Assembly (NCBI GenBank): GCA_965249135.1
Contig: OZ252220.1
Coordinates: 1,472,001 to 1,536,000, forward strand
DNA: 64,000 bases
Reading direction: 5' to 3'
Source of the DNA: Alphaproteobacteria bacterium
Lineage (GTDB): Bacteria; Pseudomonadota; Alphaproteobacteria; GCA-2746255
Shown here: positions 7,058-61,448 of the stretch, piece after piece
How the letters are laid out: each line of letters opens with the position of its first letter
How positions within the stretch are numbered: position 1 is the first letter of the stretch
Notes under the pieces: generated by a model
Databases searched by the model: none
Told to the model about the DNA's origin: nothing
Seen by the model: the letters and a program-made list of their open reading frames with translations, nothing else
Translations under genes and position numbers: made by a program

Positions 7058-8038
7058 ATGTCAGGGGCCAAGCTTTCCGGTTACGACGCCAATCAGGCGG
7101 GGCGGGGACGAATCTACGAAAACTTTCTGGATACGATCGGCAGCACGCCTCTCGTCCGCATCCAGAAATTCGCCGAAGCCCATGGTTGTGCGGCGGACCT
7201 CGTCTGCAAGCTCGAATTCTTCAACCCGCTTGCCTCCGTCAAGGACCGGATCGGGCTTGCGATGATCGAAGCGGCGGAAAAGGAGGGCCGGGTTAAGCCC
7301 GGCGCCATCTTCATCGAGCCCACCTCGGGCAACACCGGGATTGCGCTTGCCTTCGTCTGTGCGGCGAAGGGCTATCGTCTCATCCTCACGATGCCGGAAA
7401 GCATGTCGATGGAACGAAGGAAGATGTTGCAATTGCTCGGCGCGGAACTTGAATTGACGCCGGCAGCAAAGGGCATGAAAGGCGCGGTGGCACGCGCCGA
7501 AGAGCTGTTGGAGCAGACGCCGGAAATGGTCATGCTGCAGCAATTCAAGAACGCGGCGAATCCGGAAATTCACCGGCGCACGACGGCGGAAGAGATCTGG
7601 GACGACACGGATGGCAAGGTCGACGTCGTCATCAGCGGCGTCGGTACGGGCGGCACGCTCACCGGCGTCGGCGAAGTCCTAAAAGAACGCAAGCCCGGCA
7701 TCAAGATGGTCGCCGTGGAGCCGGAAGACAGCCCCGTGCTTAGCTGCGGCGCACCGGGACCCCACAAGATTCAAGGAATCGGCGCCGGATTCGTGCCGGA
7801 GATTCTCGACGAGAAACTGATCGACGAGGTCGTGCAGATCGGCAATGAGACCGCCTTCATGCTGGCCCGGGACATTGCCCGCGTCGAGGGCATGCCGGTT
7901 GGCATCTCTTCCGGTGCTGCCCTTGCCGCCGGCCTCGAAATTGGCTCGCGGCCCGGCATGGAAGGCAAGATGATCGTCATCATCATCCCCTCCTTTGCCG
8001 AACGCTACCTCTCGACGGCGCTGTTCGAAGGGCTTTGA
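7058..8038 (+). CDS. cysK: Cysteine synthase A (O-acetylserine sulfhydrylase)
   Basis: [52 protein letters not shown]. Confidence 0.96.
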
Positions 8039-56146: not shown

Positions 56147-57556
56147 ATGCCCGAGCGTGGTCAGCCCCGAACCATTCCCAAGCGTTGGTTCCTCCTGTGG
56201 GCGGCCGTCGTGGCACCCGGCGTCGGCGTGCTGGCGCTGCTGGTCCTGTTTAGCCAGGCCACGCTGTGGCCGGCGATCCTTGGCGGGACGCTGGGCGCCG
56301 TCGCGCTTTTCTTCATCGTTCGCGCCTATCTCGCCGATTTCGATGCGGTCATCGCCTATATCGGCGATCTGGCCCGGGGCGGAAAGCCGCCGACGCCGGA
56401 AGTTCGCGGGCATAGCGCATCGGATGAAATTCTTTCCGTGATCGAGGCGCTCAACCGATCGCAGATCCGGCGAACGGCGGAACTTGAAACGCTCGCCGAA
56501 GCAAACGTCACCATCCTCGACAGCATCCCCGATCCGTTACTTCTGCTCGACGGCGCGCGGCGGATCCGTCAGGCGAACCGGGCGGCGCGCGCGTTGGTGA
56601 CGGCAAATCCAATCGGTCAGGATCTCGCCGCCGTCATTCGCGATCCGGTGCTTCTCGAGGAAGTCGACGTCGCACTCGAAACCCGGTCGGATCGCGAGGC
56701 CCAGTTCACGTTTCCCTATCCCCGCCCGCAGCACTTCCTGGTTCGCATCATCCCGCTTGCGAAACCAGCCAAGGATGGCACGGCATTGATCGTCAGCCTC
56801 CACGATCTTACGGCGGTGAAGCAGTTGGAACAGACGCGCGTCGACTTCATCGCGAATGTGAGCCACGAACTCCGCACGCCGCTTTCCACGCTCGTCGGTT
56901 TCATCGAGACCCTCCAGGGGCCCGCAAAGGATGACCCGAAAGCGCGCGCGCACTTCTTGGAAATCATGGATGGTCAGACGAAACGGATGGTGCGGTTGGT
57001 CGAAGACCTGCTCTCCCTTTCCCGGATCGAGCTTAGCGAACATCTCTTGCCCCCCGGCACGGTTCCGATCGGCGATGTGCTGAAGACGTTACGTGACATG
57101 CTTGCGCTCGAGGCGAAATCCCAAGGCATGACGATCGAGCTCGAATTGGCGGCAGACCTGCCGGAGATCCCCGGCGACCGGGACGAGCTGACCCAGCTCT
57201 TTCAGAACCTCATCGACAACGCCATCAAATATGGCGGCGCCGACACGGTGATCCGGATCGCGGCAAGAAAGGTGGCGCGTCCAACTGTGAGCGGCCTTCC
57301 CGGACCGGTCCTTAGCGTGGCGGTGCGGGACGAAGGCGAGGGGATCGCGCCGGAGCATCTCTCGCGGCTGACGGAGCGTTTCTACCGCATCGACCGGGCG
57401 CGTTCGCGGGAGCTTGGAGGCACCGGGCTGGGCCTGGCCATCGTGAAACACATCGTGAACCGCCACCGGGGCAGGCTAACGATCGAAAGCACCCTTGGAA
57501 CGGGCAGCATCTTCACGGTCTTCCTGCCTTTGGAGGCGGAAGCGGTACAGTCCTAA
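56147..57556 (+). CDS. phoR: Phosphate regulon sensor kinase PhoR (last residues VQS and stop supplied by the IS)
   Basis: 2 TM helices, PAS, DFIANVSHELRTPL, NLIDNAIKY, RLTERFYRID..RSR..GGTGLGLAIVKH; upstream of pstSCA. Confidence 0.9.
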   Translation: MPERGQPRTIPKRWFLLWAAVVAPGVGVLALLVLFSQATLWPAILGGTLGAVALFFIVRAYLADFDAVIAYIGDLARGGKPPTPEVRGHSASDEILSVIEALNRSQIRRTAELETLAEANVTILDSIPDPLLLLDGARRIRQANRAARALVTANPIGQDLAAVIRDPVLLEEVDVALETRSDREAQFTFPYPRPQHFLVRIIPLAKPAKDGTALIVSLHDLTAVKQLEQTRVDFIANVSHELRTPLSTLVGFIETLQGPAKDDPKARAHFLEIMDGQTKRMVRLVEDLLSLSRIELSEHLLPPGTVPIGDVLKTLRDMLALEAKSQGMTIELELAADLPEIPGDRDELTQLFQNLIDNAIKYGGADTVIRIAARKVARPTVSGLPGPVLSVAVRDEGEGIAPEHLSRLTERFYRIDRARSRELGGTGLGLAIVKHIVNRHRGRLTIESTLGTGSIFTVFLPLEAEAVQS

Positions 57557-57637
57557 TTTGGGATGAAGTGTCCTAAATACGTGCATGGAGTGTCCAAAAT
57601 TAACCGAACACTAACCCAGCCGAGGCATTAATGAATT

Positions 57638-57919
57638 ATGGAATCCAAGACTGATATGCGCGCCGATCTAGAGCGGGTTCTAGCCTGGGCCAACGAAAAG
57701 CTTGCTGCGGGACAGGAGCCCCCGTGGGCTTGGTATCAGTACATGAAGCTGCGCGAGACGCTTGAGGCCATCTTGGCGGGGATGGATGCCGTTACCACGG
57801 AGGGTTCACCTCAATCGGCTGAACATTTGGAAAAGCATCTCCGGCTAGTGGCAGATACCGATCCGCAAGATAGCGCTCCACGCCGTCCCGCTGGGCTGCC
57901 GACACGGCTGCCCATGTGA
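57638..57919 (+). CDS. Hypothetical protein overlapping the next gene tail-to-tail
   Basis: Protein-like amphipathic N-half LERVLAWANEKLAAGQEPPWAWYQYMKLRETLEAILAGM; 128-bp antisense overlap. Confidence 0.55.
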   Translation: MESKTDMRADLERVLAWANEKLAAGQEPPWAWYQYMKLRETLEAILAGMDAVTTEGSPQSAEHLEKHLRLVADTDPQDSAPRRPAGLPTRLPM

Positions 57920-58142
57920 CGTGAAGGACTCCCCGCTTTGCATAAGCAAGAATTTTTGGATCGGCACGGTGTTGGGCCAACCGGCCGGCAACATCTCCCT
58001 GTCCCAAACGAACGACGCGGTCAGGATCGCCTTCATGCCAGATGATGTAAACACCAGCCGTTTTCATATTTAGATTCAGGCGCTCAAACAAACACCAGTG
58101 GCCGTCATCGCCACATTTTATCCATTTAACTGTCAGCATCAT
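57792..58142 (-). CDS. Small GIY-YIG-like protein (degenerate nuclease fold)
   Basis: AGVYIIW...VVRLGQG...GRLAQH...VERYL..YLP follows GIY-YIG motif order; second Tyr replaced by Arg and terminal Asn not evident. Confidence 0.65.
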   Translation of the reverse strand: MMLTVKWIKCGDDGHWCLFERLNLNMKTAGVYIIWHEGDPDRVVRLGQGDVAGRLAQHRADPKILAYAKRGVLHVTWAAVSAAQRDGVERYLADRYLPLAGDAFPNVQPIEVNPPW

Positions 58143-58947
58143 TCGATTCCTTCATTCCCGTAGTTGACGGCTGCCCCTTCTCGCCGTCCCGATAGACAAG
58201 CTCAAAGCTGTTTTCCAGAATACCGAGCCAGAGCTTGCGTTCGGACTTCGGCCATGTGTCGCCGGACTTGGGGAGCCGATTAATAAGCCCCCGAATAATG
58301 GGGTCTAAACTGAACTCATTGCCACCCCCGCCATTGTCGTGCGCGCCGGTCCCACTACCTTTATTATGGTTATCGGCTGGTGGCGTAACATGCCCCCCGC
58401 TTTTAGTGCCAGGCTGGACCAGTCGGTCCTTTCCGTTTTCATAAAAATTGGCTTCAGCGGCAGATCGTTCCAGTGTTTGCCGTGCGCGGGCCTTTTGCTT
58501 TTCAGCAACGCCAAAAGTCACCAAAGCGCGTTCTAGTTTTGCCGCTGGCGGGATTTGTTGACCACGCCAGTTTTCATAAACGCGCTTAAACAACGGGACA
58601 TTGAGGAACGCTTGAACTTTTGCTGCCCGCGCGTGGTGTTCATCAAGCGCTTTGGGCGCGAGATCCGATAGTCGGACGCCGGACGATTTGCCTGACTCGA
58701 TCAAACCAAACAGCCGCGTCGCCGACATGCGGGACCGATAACCGCTGCTCTTGGAACTGAGGTCAGTCCACGCCGCCACCTGATCATCGGTGCAATCGTC
58801 TGCCCCAGCGTTATTTGATATGGCACGGACAATCTTGAGGCATTCGCCCAAGTCAAAATATGGAAATTGAATAGACGATCGTTCGTAGTTGGAACCATCG
58901 CCCTGGTTGCCCTGTGCCGCTGCGTTGGCTTCCTCGTCACCATTCAT
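58126..58947 (-). CDS. Hypothetical protein, probable winged-helix DNA-binding domain(s) plus small C-terminal helical domain
   Basis: Likely start MNGDEE just downstream of a promoter; FPYFDL..CLKIVRAI...VAAW..SSGYRSRMSATRLFGLIE..VRLSDL; Gly/Asn-rich linker; LDPIIRGLINRLP..W...RKLWL. Fold is an inference. Confidence 0.75.
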   Translation of the reverse strand: MNGDEEANAAAQGNQGDGSNYERSSIQFPYFDLGECLKIVRAISNNAGADDCTDDQVAAWTDLSSKSSGYRSRMSATRLFGLIESGKSSGVRLSDLAPKALDEHHARAAKVQAFLNVPLFKRVYENWRGQQIPPAAKLERALVTFGVAEKQKARARQTLERSAAEANFYENGKDRLVQPGTKSGGHVTPPADNHNKGSGTGAHDNGGGGNEFSLDPIIRGLINRLPKSGDTWPKSERKLWLGILENSFELVYRDGEKGQPSTTGMKESNDADS

Positions 58948-58986
58948 GTGAACCACCCAATCCTTTCTTTTGGATTCAACGGGCAC

Positions 58987-59015
58987 ATTATGAGCGCGAC
59001 TGTCTGCGTCGTCAA
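58987..59015 (-). promoter_or_regulatory. Sigma70 promoter for the leftward cargo genes
   Basis: Minus strand TTGACG-N17-CATAAT. Confidence 0.75.
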
Positions 59016-59035
59016 GCAATATTTTGGATTCGAGG

Positions 59036-59064
59036 TTGACAGATGGATTCGCGGCAGACATAAT
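59036..59064 (+). promoter_or_regulatory. Sigma70 promoter for the small ORF / tRNA-like RNA / transposase side
   Basis: TTGACA-N17-CATAAT. Confidence 0.78.
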
Positions 59065-59092
59065 AGGCTCGCAACAACCGAGGAGACCTGCC

Positions 59093-59176
59093 ATGAGGAG
59101 GGTCGAGAGCCTCTGGCGACGTAGCCGACCAAAGGGGGCGAGGAAAAAGACAGGGGCCGTGCCTCTACCCCGCTAA
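59093..59176 (+). CDS. Candidate 27-aa basic peptide MRRVESLWRRSRPKGARKKTGAVPLPR
   Basis: GAGGAG RBS 7 nt before ATG, just downstream of the promoter; translation not demonstrated. Confidence 0.35.
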   Translation: MRRVESLWRRSRPKGARKKTGAVPLPR

Positions 59177-59212
59177 AGGTCTGGAACGGCCCCTTAATCG
59201 GCACTAACTGGG

Positions 59213-59283
59213 CCCCGGTTCGTCTAGTGGCAGGACCCCCTCTTTACAGGTCGGAGACCTACGTTCAAATCGTAGACCAGGGA
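59213..59283 (+). tRNA. tRNA-like cloverleaf, anticodon TAC (Val), degenerate anticodon stem, no encoded CCA
   Basis: Acceptor CCCCGGT/ACCAGGG (6/7), U8, D arm GTCT-AGTGGCA-GGAC, anticodon stem CCCTC/GTCGG (3/5) with loop TTTACAG, variable AGAC, T arm CTACG-TTCAAAT-CGTAG (5/5), discriminator A, then C and a T7 run. Confidence 0.72.
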
Positions 59284-59446
59284 CTTTTTTTAAACCGGGA
59301 ACCGATGGCTGTTGTAGCAGCCACCGGCCCTTGATCAAAAACCCAGGGATTTGGCCCCTGAGCCGTGACCGAGGAATATATAGCAGATTCAGAGCTGTAT
59401 TTCCACAATGGCATGGGCCTATCCCGAGCAAATAGGGATTGGTCCC

Positions 59447-60322
59447 ATGAACATTCTACCGCTTGATAGGCAAATCCAAGCCGTTAGCGCCCTTACCGAG
59501 GGGTGTTCCATCCGCGCGGCCGAACGCCTTACAGGCGTCCACCGGGACACAATCATGCGCCTTGGGGTCCGAGTCGGGGAAGGGTGCCAGCACCTCCATG
59601 ACCGGCAGATGCAGGGGCTTCATGTCCCCATCATCGAATTGGACGAGATTTGGGCCTATGTCGGCATGAAACAACGGAAGGCTGGCCCGCACCCAGAGAT
59701 GGGCGACCAGTACACCTGCACAGCCCTAGACGCGACGAACAAGGCAATCATCTCCTACCTCACAGGCAAGCGGGACGCGCCGAATACTCACGCCTTTGCT
59801 TACGATCTTGCCAGCCGCATTACGAACCGGCCCGAAGTCACGTCCGATGGCTTTGGGCCTTATGTAGAAGCCGTCCTTGGCGCGTTTGGGTATGACGGGG
59901 TGGATTTTGGCCAGATCGTCAAGCACTACGAGGGCGAGCGAGGGCAACAGGCTTCCCGAAAATACTCCCCCGGCCGAATTGTAAGCGTACAGAAAACCGT
60001 AGTATCCGGCACGCCACGTCGCCTTTCGACCTCCCTCGTTGAACGGTCGAATCTAACCCTTCGGATGCAGCAACGGCGGTTCACTCGACTGACCAATGGG
60101 TTCAGCAAGAAGCTCCAAAACCACAAGGCAGCGGTCAGCCTTTTCGTGGCTCACTACAACTTTTGCCGGGTCCACAGTACCATCCAGATCACGCCAGCCA
60201 TGGCTCTTGGGGTCACAGACCACATCTGGACCATCGGCGAATTGATCGAAGCGGCGACCGGACCCGAGCCACAAGGTCACACGGCTGGACGGTTCCGGGT
60301 GATTGATGGCGGATTGTCCTAA
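59447..60322 (+). CDS. IS1-family DDE transposase
   Basis: HTH EGCSIRAAERLTGVHRDTIMRL, IELDEIWAYVG, VTSDG, TSLVERSNLTLRM..RRFTRLTNGFSKK, HYNFCRVH, TPAMALG. Confidence 0.92.
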   Translation: MNILPLDRQIQAVSALTEGCSIRAAERLTGVHRDTIMRLGVRVGEGCQHLHDRQMQGLHVPIIELDEIWAYVGMKQRKAGPHPEMGDQYTCTALDATNKAIISYLTGKRDAPNTHAFAYDLASRITNRPEVTSDGFGPYVEAVLGAFGYDGVDFGQIVKHYEGERGQQASRKYSPGRIVSVQKTVVSGTPRRLSTSLVERSNLTLRMQQRRFTRLTNGFSKKLQNHKAAVSLFVAHYNFCRVHSTIQITPAMALGVTDHIWTIGELIEAATGPEPQGHTAGRFRVIDGGLS

Positions 60323-60366
60323 GTTCATGCGGCGACTGTCCTAATTCAGCCAGTACCGCGGAAGCG

Positions 60367-60410: not shown

Positions 60411-61448
60411 ATGGGGAGGAAACTGCTTCTCGCTGCCGCTATTGCCGCCGTCGGTCTGGGTTCGGCCTTTGCGTCCGACACCCGCAACCAGATCCGCATC
60501 GTCGGGTCTTCGACCGTCTTCCCGTTTTCCACCGCGGCTGCCGAAGAATTCGGACAAATGACGAACTTCAAGACGCCGGTCGTCGAGAACACCGGTTCCG
60601 GCGGCGGTCTGAAGCTGTTCTGCTCAGGAATCGGGCTCGCTCATCCCGACATCACGAATGCCTCGCGTCGGATCAAGGATTCGGAAGTGGCGAGGTGCGC
60701 GAAGAACGGCGTCGGCAACATCACGGAAGTCAAGATCGGGTTCGACGGCATCGTGCTCGCAAATTCGAAGAAGGCAAAACGCTTCGCACTTACCCGGAAG
60801 GCGATCTGGCTGGCGCTCGCAAAAGACGTTCCGGACGCTTCCGGCAAGTTGGTACCCAATCCCAACACGACCTGGAAGGATGTGGACGCAAGCCTTCCCG
60901 ACAGGAAAATCGAAGTGCTGGGCCCGCCGCCGACGTCTGGCACGCGGGATGCCTTCGTCGAGCTTGCGATGGAAAGCGGCTGCAAGACGTTTCCGAGCAT
61001 CTTGGCGATGAAGAAGACGGACAAGATGAAGTACAAGGCCATCTGCCACTCGATCCGCGAGGATGGGGCCTTCATCGATGCCGGCGAAAACGACAATCTG
61101 ATCGTCCAGAAACTTAAATCGAACCCGGCCGCCCTTGGCGTCTTTGGGTTCAGCTTCCTCGATCAGAACCGGGACAAGGTCCAGGGCAGCCTCGTGGACA
61201 AGGCCGAGCCCAGCTTCGACAACATTTCAAGCGGGAAATATCCGGTCTCGCGTTCCCTATACTTCTACGTGAAGAACGCCCATGTCGGCATCGTGCCGGG
61301 GATTGCGGAATACATCGACGCCTTCACGAGCGAGACCGCCTGGGGACCTTACGGCTATTTGGCCGATCGGGGGCTTATTCCGCTGCCCGTGGAAGAGCGG
61401 GAGAAAGTCCGCAGCGGGGCGATGAGCCTGACACCCTATGCCAAGTAA
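60411..61448 (+). CDS. pstS: Phosphate ABC transporter substrate-binding protein
   Basis: Signal peptide; IVGSSTVFPF, TGSGGG, NASRRIK, GPPPTSGTRDAF, YPVSRSLYFY. Confidence 0.95.
   Translation: MGRKLLLAAAIAAVGLGSAFASDTRNQIRIVGSSTVFPFSTAAAEEFGQMTNFKTPVVENTGSGGGLKLFCSGIGLAHPDITNASRRIKDSEVARCAKNGVGNITEVKIGFDGIVLANSKKAKRFALTRKAIWLALAKDVPDASGKLVPNPNTTWKDVDASLPDRKIEVLGPPPTSGTRDAFVELAMESGCKTFPSILAMKKTDKMKYKAICHSIREDGAFIDAGENDNLIVQKLKSNPAALGVFGFSFLDQNRDKVQGSLVDKAEPSFDNISSGKYPVSRSLYFYVKNAHVGIVPGIAEYIDAFTSETAWGPYGYLADRGLIPLPVEEREKVRSGAMSLTPYAK

Follow-up and report, generated by a model that had tools for sequence, protein, structure and literature searches.

We analysed a 64,000-nt stretch of DNA from an alphaproteobacterium (contig OZ252220.1, positions 1,472,001 to 1,536,000 of the forward strand), hereafter the window; all coordinates below are window positions. 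An insertion sequence of the IS1 family, 2814 bp long, occupies positions 57544–60357 (+ strand). It consists of three passenger genes, a leader of about 376 nt and a transposase gene. The leader contains a cloverleaf resembling tRNA-Val(UAC), and the transposase gene contains a cluster of GTA valine codons, the complement of the anticodon of that cloverleaf. The relation between this RNA and these codons is the main subject of this study. An earlier model-made reading of the sequence (the original prediction) had described the element and its perfect 8-bp duplication, its IS1 membership, a pair of near-consensus promoters facing away from each other, a 273-aa gene and a GIY-YIG-like gene that overlap, and a tRNA cloverleaf in a hairpin-rich leader before the transposase; all of these features are borne out by the results below.

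The element, its transposase and its tRNA-like RNA

The element is flanked by an 8-bp target-site duplication, GCGGAAGC, whose left copy (57536–57543) is identical to the right copy (60358–60365). IS1-family elements duplicate about 8–9 bp of target, and an exact 8-bp duplication also borders at least 17 of 28 related elements with defined ends; four further related elements gain a matching duplication if one end is moved by one base. The left terminal repeat GGTACAGTCCTAA (57544–57556, +) has two mismatches to the family consensus GGTGCTGTCCTAA, and the right terminal repeat TTCAGCCAGTACC (60345–60357, +) has mismatches at 4 of 13 positions to the consensus TTAGGACAGCACC, so that the inverted repeats of the window copy are short and imperfect. 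The element termini begin with GGT, as judged from the family ends compared. A repeat search also located GTCCTAA-like subterminal motifs in the left end (57570–57576 and 57592–57598) and GTCCTAA motifs in the right end (60316–60322 and 60338–60344), which form direct rather than inverted repeats.

The element has inserted into the final codons of a gene for a phoR-like histidine kinase (56147–57556), and a pstS-like gene (60411–61448) follows it. Read from the sequence, the kinase now ends in ...EAEAVQS and would end in ...EAEAAS without the insertion. DNA contigs from one sample and study (four runs) span both element junctions, and no empty site was seen among them. There is a single full copy of the element in the 2.1-Mb genome. 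Elsewhere in this genome a perfect 13-nt match to the right-end consensus is found at C1:1104994 and, far from it, a left-end match with one mismatch at C1:1038081; both may be solo remnants.

The transposase gene (59447–60322, +) encodes a DDE transposase of 291 amino acids, with a further in-frame ATG at 59408. Its product matches the Pfam family DDE_Tnp_IS1 (E 2.9e-7, 31.3 bits, cut-off 24.1) and reaches 55.9 bits against the NCBIfam model transpos_IS1, under its cut-off of 100. Plasmid relatives at about 40% identity carry the annotation "IS1 family transposase". The motifs ELDEIW, TSDGF and VERSN are readable in the protein, and we take them to hold the catalytic D, D and E. The −1 frameshift that joins insA and insB in classical IS1 is not found in this gene, which is one uninterrupted open reading frame (ORF); the element is therefore not a classical IS1. 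It fits what we take to be the single-ORF, ISMhu11-like subgroup of IS1, as both traits that we associate with this subgroup, the single ORF and the passenger genes, are present. On sequence grounds we class the element as a single-ORF IS1-family insertion sequence.

The tRNA-Val(UAC)-like cloverleaf lies at 59213–59284 (+), 162 nt upstream of the transposase start codon measured from its 3' end, and is followed by a run of seven T (59285–59291). ARAGORN reports it as tRNA-Val(tac), and its score against the Rfam tRNA model RF00005 is 39.8 bits, the gathering score being 29. The window cloverleaf has two mismatches in the anticodon stem and one in the acceptor stem, lacks an encoded CCA and, taken alone, is not the minimum-energy fold.

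Relatives were examined in the best 80 of 508 genome relatives (one genome per species) and the best 80 of 568 metagenome relatives (contigs). A covariance model of the tRNA-like RNA, built from 25 copies, matches 39 of 92 sources, namely 37 of the 80 genome loci, the genome G022 and the window, with the RNA on the transposase strand and upstream of its start codon. The same model finds the RNA at 20 of the 80 metagenome loci. RNA-bearing elements number in the dozens and occur across Pseudomonadota and other phyla, with transposases that share only about 55–70% identity. G022 is the closest relative among 61 related genomes. Its ends, tRNA-like RNA, hairpin and leader are those of the window element and its duplication is exact; the genes upstream of its tRNA-like RNA differ from those of the window. 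As the RNA is found with differing passenger genes, it belongs to the transposase and not to the cargo.

In an alignment of 40 copies, the cloverleaf pairs hold in 97.0% of 776 cells, compared with 71% in shuffled sequences and 36–59% with slid partners. Sixteen of the 21 pairs vary on both sides, and all seven pairs of the acceptor stem covary. To judge from this alignment, the structure of the RNA is under selection. The acceptor, D and T arms and the bases of the tertiary contacts are the best-conserved parts. The anticodon is TAC in 40 of 40 copies, with variable loop positions next to it; the discriminator is A in 39 of 40, and CCA, read from the alignment, is encoded in about 27 of 40. 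A35, C36 and A73 are the main valine identity marks of tRNA, and all three are conserved here. The RNA nevertheless differs strongly from the host tRNA-Val(UAC), and the features of a canonical elongator tRNA-Val (a 5-bp anticodon stem, a 7-nt loop with U33, U54-U55-C56 and CCA) are not all present in the window copy or in the family. ARAGORN labels these cloverleaves variously tRNA-Val, tRNA-Cys or "undetermined". One relative (L068) has a second RNA copy (7139–7215, −; 64 bits) about 2 kb past the first element and in the opposite orientation, probably as part of a second element. In the sample of the window, a 661-nt contig matches only window positions 59191–59282, with five differences and one gap, and likely stems from a related element of another organism there.

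The leader has a conserved order of parts. A promoter-like site, TTGACA-17-CATAAT (59036–59064, +; 11 of 12 matches to the consensus), faces the leader, the tRNA-like RNA and the transposase; a second, TTGACG-17-CATAAT (59015–58987, −; 10 of 12), faces the 273-aa gene. A scan of the 3.1-kb region returned three promoter-like sites against 1.3 ± 1.1 in shuffled sequences, and 23 of 36 elements have such a site 144–168 nt 5' of the tRNA-like RNA. The conserved ATATAGC box was considered as an internal promoter and rejected, the spacing to any −35-like hexamer being unsuitable. After the promoter-like site follow a short upstream ORF of 27 codons (59093–59176, +) with a conserved Shine-Dalgarno sequence, ATG and AGGAGGGT box, whose length varies in relatives, and, in the family, two conserved hairpins with the TAATCGGC box. 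In the window the leader alignment places the conserved hairpin GGGGCCGT...ACGGCCCC and then TAATCGGC at 59152–59202 (+). The tRNA-like RNA comes next and is succeeded by a strong hairpin (59295–59330, +), conserved in the alignment and supported by folding. Further down, an "up" segment AGGGATTTGGCCCC (59345–59358, +) is a near-copy of the start-codon segment and a candidate anti-sequestor. The last part is a hairpin in which GGGCCTATCCC pairs with AGGGATTGGTCCC-ATG (59415–59449, +), a predicted fold that would sequester the transposase start region.

RNAalifold on the leaders returns the main hairpins as well as the cloverleaf. In most of 26 folded leaders, to judge from their fold lines, the start codon or the bases just 5' of it are paired, and the upstream near-copy offers an alternative pairing, with z of −2 to −5.6 in many of them. 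From this we infer that the transposase start site may be hidden and freed by the alternative pairing. A column-wise search for further covarying leader helices was weakened by alignment gaps. Reading the alignment gave the idea of a pseudoknot between GCCGA in the first hairpin loop and UCGGC after the second hairpin. Beyond tRNA, Rfam returned for this region only a weak antisense match to BjrC68 (E 0.66).

Rare GTA codons and their natural contrasts

The host genome uses GTA for 8.5% of its valine codons. In RNA-bearing transposases the conserved motif R-R-Y-S-P-G-x-V-V-x-V, just before the region of the catalytic glutamate, is encoded with GTA GTA nnn GTA, and one more such site lies near the C-terminus. 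GTA makes up 131 of the 150 valine codons in this 10-codon stretch in 37 RNA-bearing transposases, compared with 74 of 768 elsewhere in the same genes; 43 transposases that lack the RNA have 20 of 99 in the stretch and 111 of 903 elsewhere. By column, the three conserved valines of the motif are GTA in 34 of 36, 34 of 35 and 34 of 35 genes and the C-terminal one in 24 of 33, while nine other conserved valine columns contain no GTA at all. These GTA columns are the only ones in which a minor codon is fixed. Metagenome loci repeat the pattern in 69 of 78 cases.

In the window the cluster encodes R-I-V-S-V-Q-K-T-V-V-S-G (59975–60010, +), with GTA at 59981, 59987, 59999 and 60002; the codons at 59978–60004 read ATT GTA AGC GTA CAG AAA ACC GTA GTA. 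Five of the 21 valine codons of the window transposase are GTA, and four of these five are in the cluster.

One relative, L112, offers a natural contrast. It falls within the clade, with 72% identity to L128 and 71% to L027, and has kept the leader, in which a canonical-looking tRNA-Gly(UCC) at L112:1251–1326 stands in place of the valine-type RNA, the transposase starting at 1492. The motif codons are here GTT GTC GCG GTT, so that the GTA cluster is gone. GGA, in turn, accounts for 8 of its 20 glycine codons (binomial P 3.6e-4), the highest share of the 62 genes compared; the 61 relatives together have 135 of 1376, and no single gene among them exceeds 24%. As L112 encodes V-V-A-V with ordinary valine codons, the residues at these positions are most likely valine, and recoding is unlikely in this clade. 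A subclade of three elements (L046, L051 and L062) has neither the RNA nor the GTA cluster; its placement inside the clade has a support of 83 in a quick tree that leaves the base of the clade unresolved.

The TAC loop also occurs on other scaffolds at the same position of the leader: on one with a long variable arm in L037 and L124, and on an odd form with an odd D region in L053, L126 and L127. Both groups keep the GTA cluster. In a sister clade, a cloverleaf stands just upstream of the start codon in 18 of 75 loci, compared with 0 of 75 in the reverse-strand control; bearers include L067, L070, L072, L076, L079, L080, L089, L091, L094, L097, L098, L146, L149–L151, L161 and L162. Its distance to the start codon is 25–52 nt, except in L162 with 271 nt. 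It has a YTTACAY loop, with TAC in 17 of 18, and an acceptor stem with G3:U70 and A73, often followed by CCA. G3:U70 and A73 are acceptor marks of the alanine type, recognised by AlaRS. In its bases, the sister-clade form is a valine anticodon on an alanine-type frame. The valine of the motif Q-I-V-K is GTA in 10 of 12 RNA-bearing genes of this clade and also in 7 genes without the RNA. Frames as different as these all keep the TAC loop, which argues for a function of the anticodon itself. A separate observation is the transposase of L090, in which GTA makes up 15 of 23 valine codons, far above all other genes; the cloverleaf upstream of it has a GTTAACG loop and not the TAC loop.

A proposed role in transposase translation

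We believe, with a probability of roughly 60%, that the tRNA encoded by the element acts at a programmed cluster of rare codons and so gates the translation of its own transposase. This is the simplest way to explain at once the invariance of the anticodon, the placement of its cognate codons at specific sites and the exchange in L112. The promoter-like site at 59036–59064 would drive one transcript consisting of the leader and the transposase, from which the cloverleaf would be excised as tRNAs are from their precursors. Once released, the RNA would probably be charged by valyl-tRNA synthetase, as A35, C36 and A73 are conserved. The charged RNA would then act on the ribosome at the clustered GUA codons of V-V-x-V and at the one near the C-terminus, and the element would thereby set the rate or the outcome of its own transposase translation. 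The canonical tRNA-Gly of L112 speaks for a helper role, and the valine form, with its irregular anticodon arm, points to a brake.

Several observations weigh against this proposal. The first concerns the RNA itself: an extra nucleotide in the 3' strand of the anticodon stem is read from the alignment in roughly 30 of 40 copies, anticodon loops of 8 nt occur in about half of the copies, mixed with loops of 7 nt, U33 varies and most copies have C at position 55. Such a non-canonical anticodon arm could make the RNA a poor decoder. The host has its own canonical tRNA-Val(UAC), so that the element RNA is not strictly needed to read GUA. Furthermore, the GTA cluster is kept without the RNA in L048, L120, L121 and L143, which shows that the cluster can persist without a copy of the RNA in cis. 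L048 is 85% identical to L047, and L120 and L121 are 86–87% identical to L124; like L143, they are close kin of RNA bearers, which fits a recent loss of the RNA. L120 and L121 are compact, with a GTCCTAA end-like sequence and a promoter directly before the transposase (about 80 nt before its start), and with an intact GTA cluster they have no leader and no tRNA-like RNA. The co-occurrence of RNA and codons amounts to few independent events, namely one clade, L112 and one subclade. Finally, the window copy is the lowest scorer of the 39 (67.5 bits with the covariance model); the top scores belong to L024, L038 and L049. Two of the usual GTA sites are changed in the window, to ATT at the first motif site and to GTG at the C-terminal site. 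With its three mismatched pairs, missing CCA, T7 run and diverged right end, the window copy may be decaying.

An alternative is that the cloverleaf serves only in processing or insulation, as an RNase P or 3'-end signal that frees or stabilises the transposase mRNA, and that the host tRNA reads the GUA cluster, a pause site with no relation to the RNA. The strong conservation of the acceptor, D and T arms and tertiary contacts, with CCA in about two-thirds of the copies, would agree with this, as would the position of the RNA between two conserved hairpins in one leader, the irregular anticodon arm and the persistence of GTA in elements without the RNA. A processing signal, however, has no reason to hold TAC in every copy and across four scaffolds, and it leaves unexplained why the fixed rare codon is the complement of the anticodon and why L112 lost its GTA codons when the tRNA changed. 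We regard this alternative as unlikely, but as one to be taken seriously. Very doubtful, in our judgement, is that the RNA is a non-standard decoder which, once charged, stalls, frameshifts or hops at GUA-GUA and yields a truncated DNA-binding product or less enzyme as the copy number rises, a form of multicopy inhibition. The extra nucleotides of the anticodon stem and loop are indeed maintained across the family, and reading GUAG as a quadruplet would lead to an immediate TAG or TAA in 30 of 33 genes. A frameshift and a regulator made from the upstream product are also described for classical IS1 (PMC5009743). Yet the codon after the GTA begins with A or G in about 71% of relatives without the RNA (a count from tables), so that the stop in the +1 frame is weak evidence, and the second GTA pair of the window gives TAT in the +1 frame. 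Loops of 7 and 8 nt are mixed within the family, and the canonical-looking tRNA-Gly of L112 better suits a plain helper. Hopping by a tRNA-Val has a precedent in hopR. Quadruplet decoding was also considered for the frameshifted G022 transposase and rejected, since the shift needed there is −1 and not +1.

A broader version of altered decoding would have the private tRNAs of this IS1 subgroup change the reading of programmed transposase codons, with a stall or shift at GUA-GUA in the window clade and possibly alanine at the lone conserved GUA codon of the sister clade. We consider it quite unlikely; if true, it would be a transposon's route to two protein forms, or a way of sensing copy number through the genetic code. 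Natural mistranslation is a possible role of the sister-clade variants, which join an alanine-type acceptor stem to a valine anticodon. That the protein pair and the RNA form a joint defence or toxin-antitoxin cassette carried as cargo appears highly improbable. The genes are adjacent to the RNA, divergent and read from paired promoters, the 116-aa protein has a nuclease fold, and the 93-aa protein weakly matches a defence-candidate model; on the other side, the RNA is found with other cargo, the GIY-YIG pair is present in 2 of 28 elements and sits elsewhere in one of them (L063), and PADLOC finds nothing for the 273-aa or the 116-aa protein. We give equally little credence to an inert relic, a tRNA gene captured once and carried without function. 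The degenerate window copy would suit such a relic, but even among transposases of only about 55–70% identity the anticodon stays the same and 16 of 21 pairs show compensatory changes.

If gating by the element's own tRNA is correct, a leader tRNA matched to a cluster of its cognate rare codon would be a new kind of transposase control. Known limits on transposase are weak promoters, hidden starts, frameshifts, antisense RNAs and inhibitor proteins. In the main texts covered by our literature search no insertion sequence is described in which a tRNA gene is coupled to codons, nor did we find there the leader, the GTA cluster, the GTCCTAA repeats or the winged-helix partner of this element. Nature has already made one tRNA/codon swap, in L112. 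For annotation, such cloverleaves may inflate the tRNA counts of genomes.

The closest parallel is bldA, the tRNA-Leu(UAA) of Streptomyces, which reads rare TTA codons and whose supply gates translation. In both cases a rare codon of a high-GC genome occurs in particular genes and is served by one dedicated tRNA, as proposed here. Unlike bldA, the tRNA is here encoded by a mobile element, in the leader of the very gene whose translation it would control; the codons stand together at fixed positions, and the host also has a normal tRNA for them. Phages encode tRNAs that match their codon usage, and these too are tRNAs for host-rare codons carried by a mobile genetic entity. The present case differs in that a single tRNA-like gene with a non-canonical anticodon arm lies in a 2.8-kb insertion sequence and would be used site-specifically at 3–5 codons, not for a genome-wide bias. 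Co-transcripts of tRNA and mRNA are known from the tRNAs upstream of tufB and from RNase P sites in operon mRNAs. As there, a tRNA structure lies inside an mRNA precursor from which host processing enzymes would excise it; unlike there, the RNA keeps an anticodon that is complementary to a fixed cluster of codons in the gene downstream.

Among insertion sequences, the element resembles the single-ORF, ISMhu11-like members of IS1 in its DDE_Tnp_IS1 domain, GGT termini, 8-bp duplication, single ORF and internal extra genes. It departs from them in its structured leader of about 380 nt with a tRNA-like gene, its GTA cluster, its direct GTCCTAA repeats and its recurrent winged-helix partner. Elements of the IS10 and IS200 type sequester the start site of their transposase. 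The predicted hairpin that would hide the start is a similar trait, as would be a low, translationally limited amount of transposase. Classical IS1, and also IS3, make their transposase by frameshifting, and the upstream product of IS1 is a regulator (PMC5009743). The present element, in contrast, has an uninterrupted single ORF without a frameshift window, and the proposed control lies in the pair of tRNA and codon.

Passenger genes

The gene for a 273-aa protein (58126–58947, −; the longest version of the ORF reaches 59094 and 322 aa) lies on the opposite strand just upstream of the leader. Of 28 elements with defined ends, 20 have a family member at this position and in this orientation, and 2 of 4 further genome loci have one next to the tRNA-like RNA; the family has at least 242 unnamed proteins. 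The structural model (pLDDT 82) suggests tandem winged-helix domains at about residues 20–180, followed by a Gly-rich linker and a C-terminal helical module. Over about 150 residues it matches N.BspD6I (Z 8.2), FokI (8.1), BrxA (7.9) and 3bhw (7.9), values in the range of a common arrangement. The winged-helix part resembles, at these middling Z scores, the DNA-recognition parts of FokI, N.BspD6I and BrxA. The best Foldseek hit is to DtxR-type repressors (E 0.013). The kept position together with a predicted DNA-binding fold makes a regulatory link to the divergent promoters plausible; the most likely role of the protein is to bind DNA in this promoter region, as a regulator or an accessory factor. 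Three copies of TGGATTC (at 58971, 59025 and 59044; span 58971–59050) flank these promoters and form a candidate operator. An operator motif shared by the winged-helix proteins was rejected, as no 6-mer recurs across elements and each has its own repeats.

The second gene, for a 116-aa protein (57792–58142, −), overlaps the 273-aa gene by 17 nt, at the stop of the latter and the start of the former. It has 444 homologues, with 59–71% identity among the matches listed, and 33 sequences share the invariant pattern GVY...R-GQG...R...E. A Pfam search gave no match to the GIY-YIG family. In the fold search with the model (pLDDT 92) the best match is the GIY-YIG domain of UvrC (probability 0.99, TM 0.63), and the top nine matches are all UvrC GIY-YIG domains (probability 0.94–0.99; rmsd 2.6 Å over 81 columns). 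By its predicted fold the protein belongs to the GIY-YIG nuclease superfamily, with a putative nuclease activity.

A third gene, absent from the original prediction, encodes a 93-aa protein (57638–57919, +). It belongs to a conserved family with 231 homologues and converges on the GIY-YIG gene with an overlap of 128 nt. A convergent overlap of about 130 nt is found both in the window and in L063 (4994–5537), where the pair lies downstream of the transposase. The contigs bearing the 116-aa and 93-aa families are of equal size in at least 25 cases, an indirect comparison made from the tables of homologues. Both families thereby seem to occur together on many metagenome contigs, and the two genes seem to form a conserved two-gene module. 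Modelling of a complex of the two proteins gave a score of 0.00, which speaks neither for nor against binding.

No family in Pfam, NCBIfam or PHROGs was found for any of the three passenger proteins. The PADLOC models matched neither the transposase nor the 273-aa or 116-aa protein, and the 93-aa protein matched one model, PDC-M05B, weakly (E 0.0036); a defence cassette, as once suggested for this locus, is thus poorly borne out. The idea that proteins and RNA make one module did not hold either, since the RNA keeps with the transposase. The competing idea of independently captured cargo applies to the GIY-YIG and 93-aa pair, whose presence in 2 of 28 elements marks it as independent, and fails for the RNA, which lies in the transposase leader in 39 of 92 sources. 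The proposed check of whether cloverleaf and proteins co-occur gave a divided answer: the GIY-YIG protein assorts independently of the RNA, an outcome that the original prediction had itself named as counting against it, and the 273-aa protein is a partial exception, given its 20 of 28 elements.

Other relatives carry other genes at this place. In L034, L063 and L065 a pair of small genes, one of them XRE-like, replaces the 273-aa gene upstream of the tRNA-like RNA, and by eye these pairs look like toxin-antitoxin cassettes of the HigB/HigA type. L022 and L023 have a coiled-coil ORF on the + strand among their upstream genes. In the window, a 244-bp piece (58085–58328), which takes in the 3' end of the 273-aa gene and 57 nt from the start of the GIY-YIG gene, recurs with 98% identity at two other loci of the genome, L002 and L003 (1501–1744 in each). 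There the piece ends a 119-aa ORF inside a repeat of about 2 kb beside integrase-like and XRE-like genes. This identity suggests a recent recombination between the cargo and another repeat.

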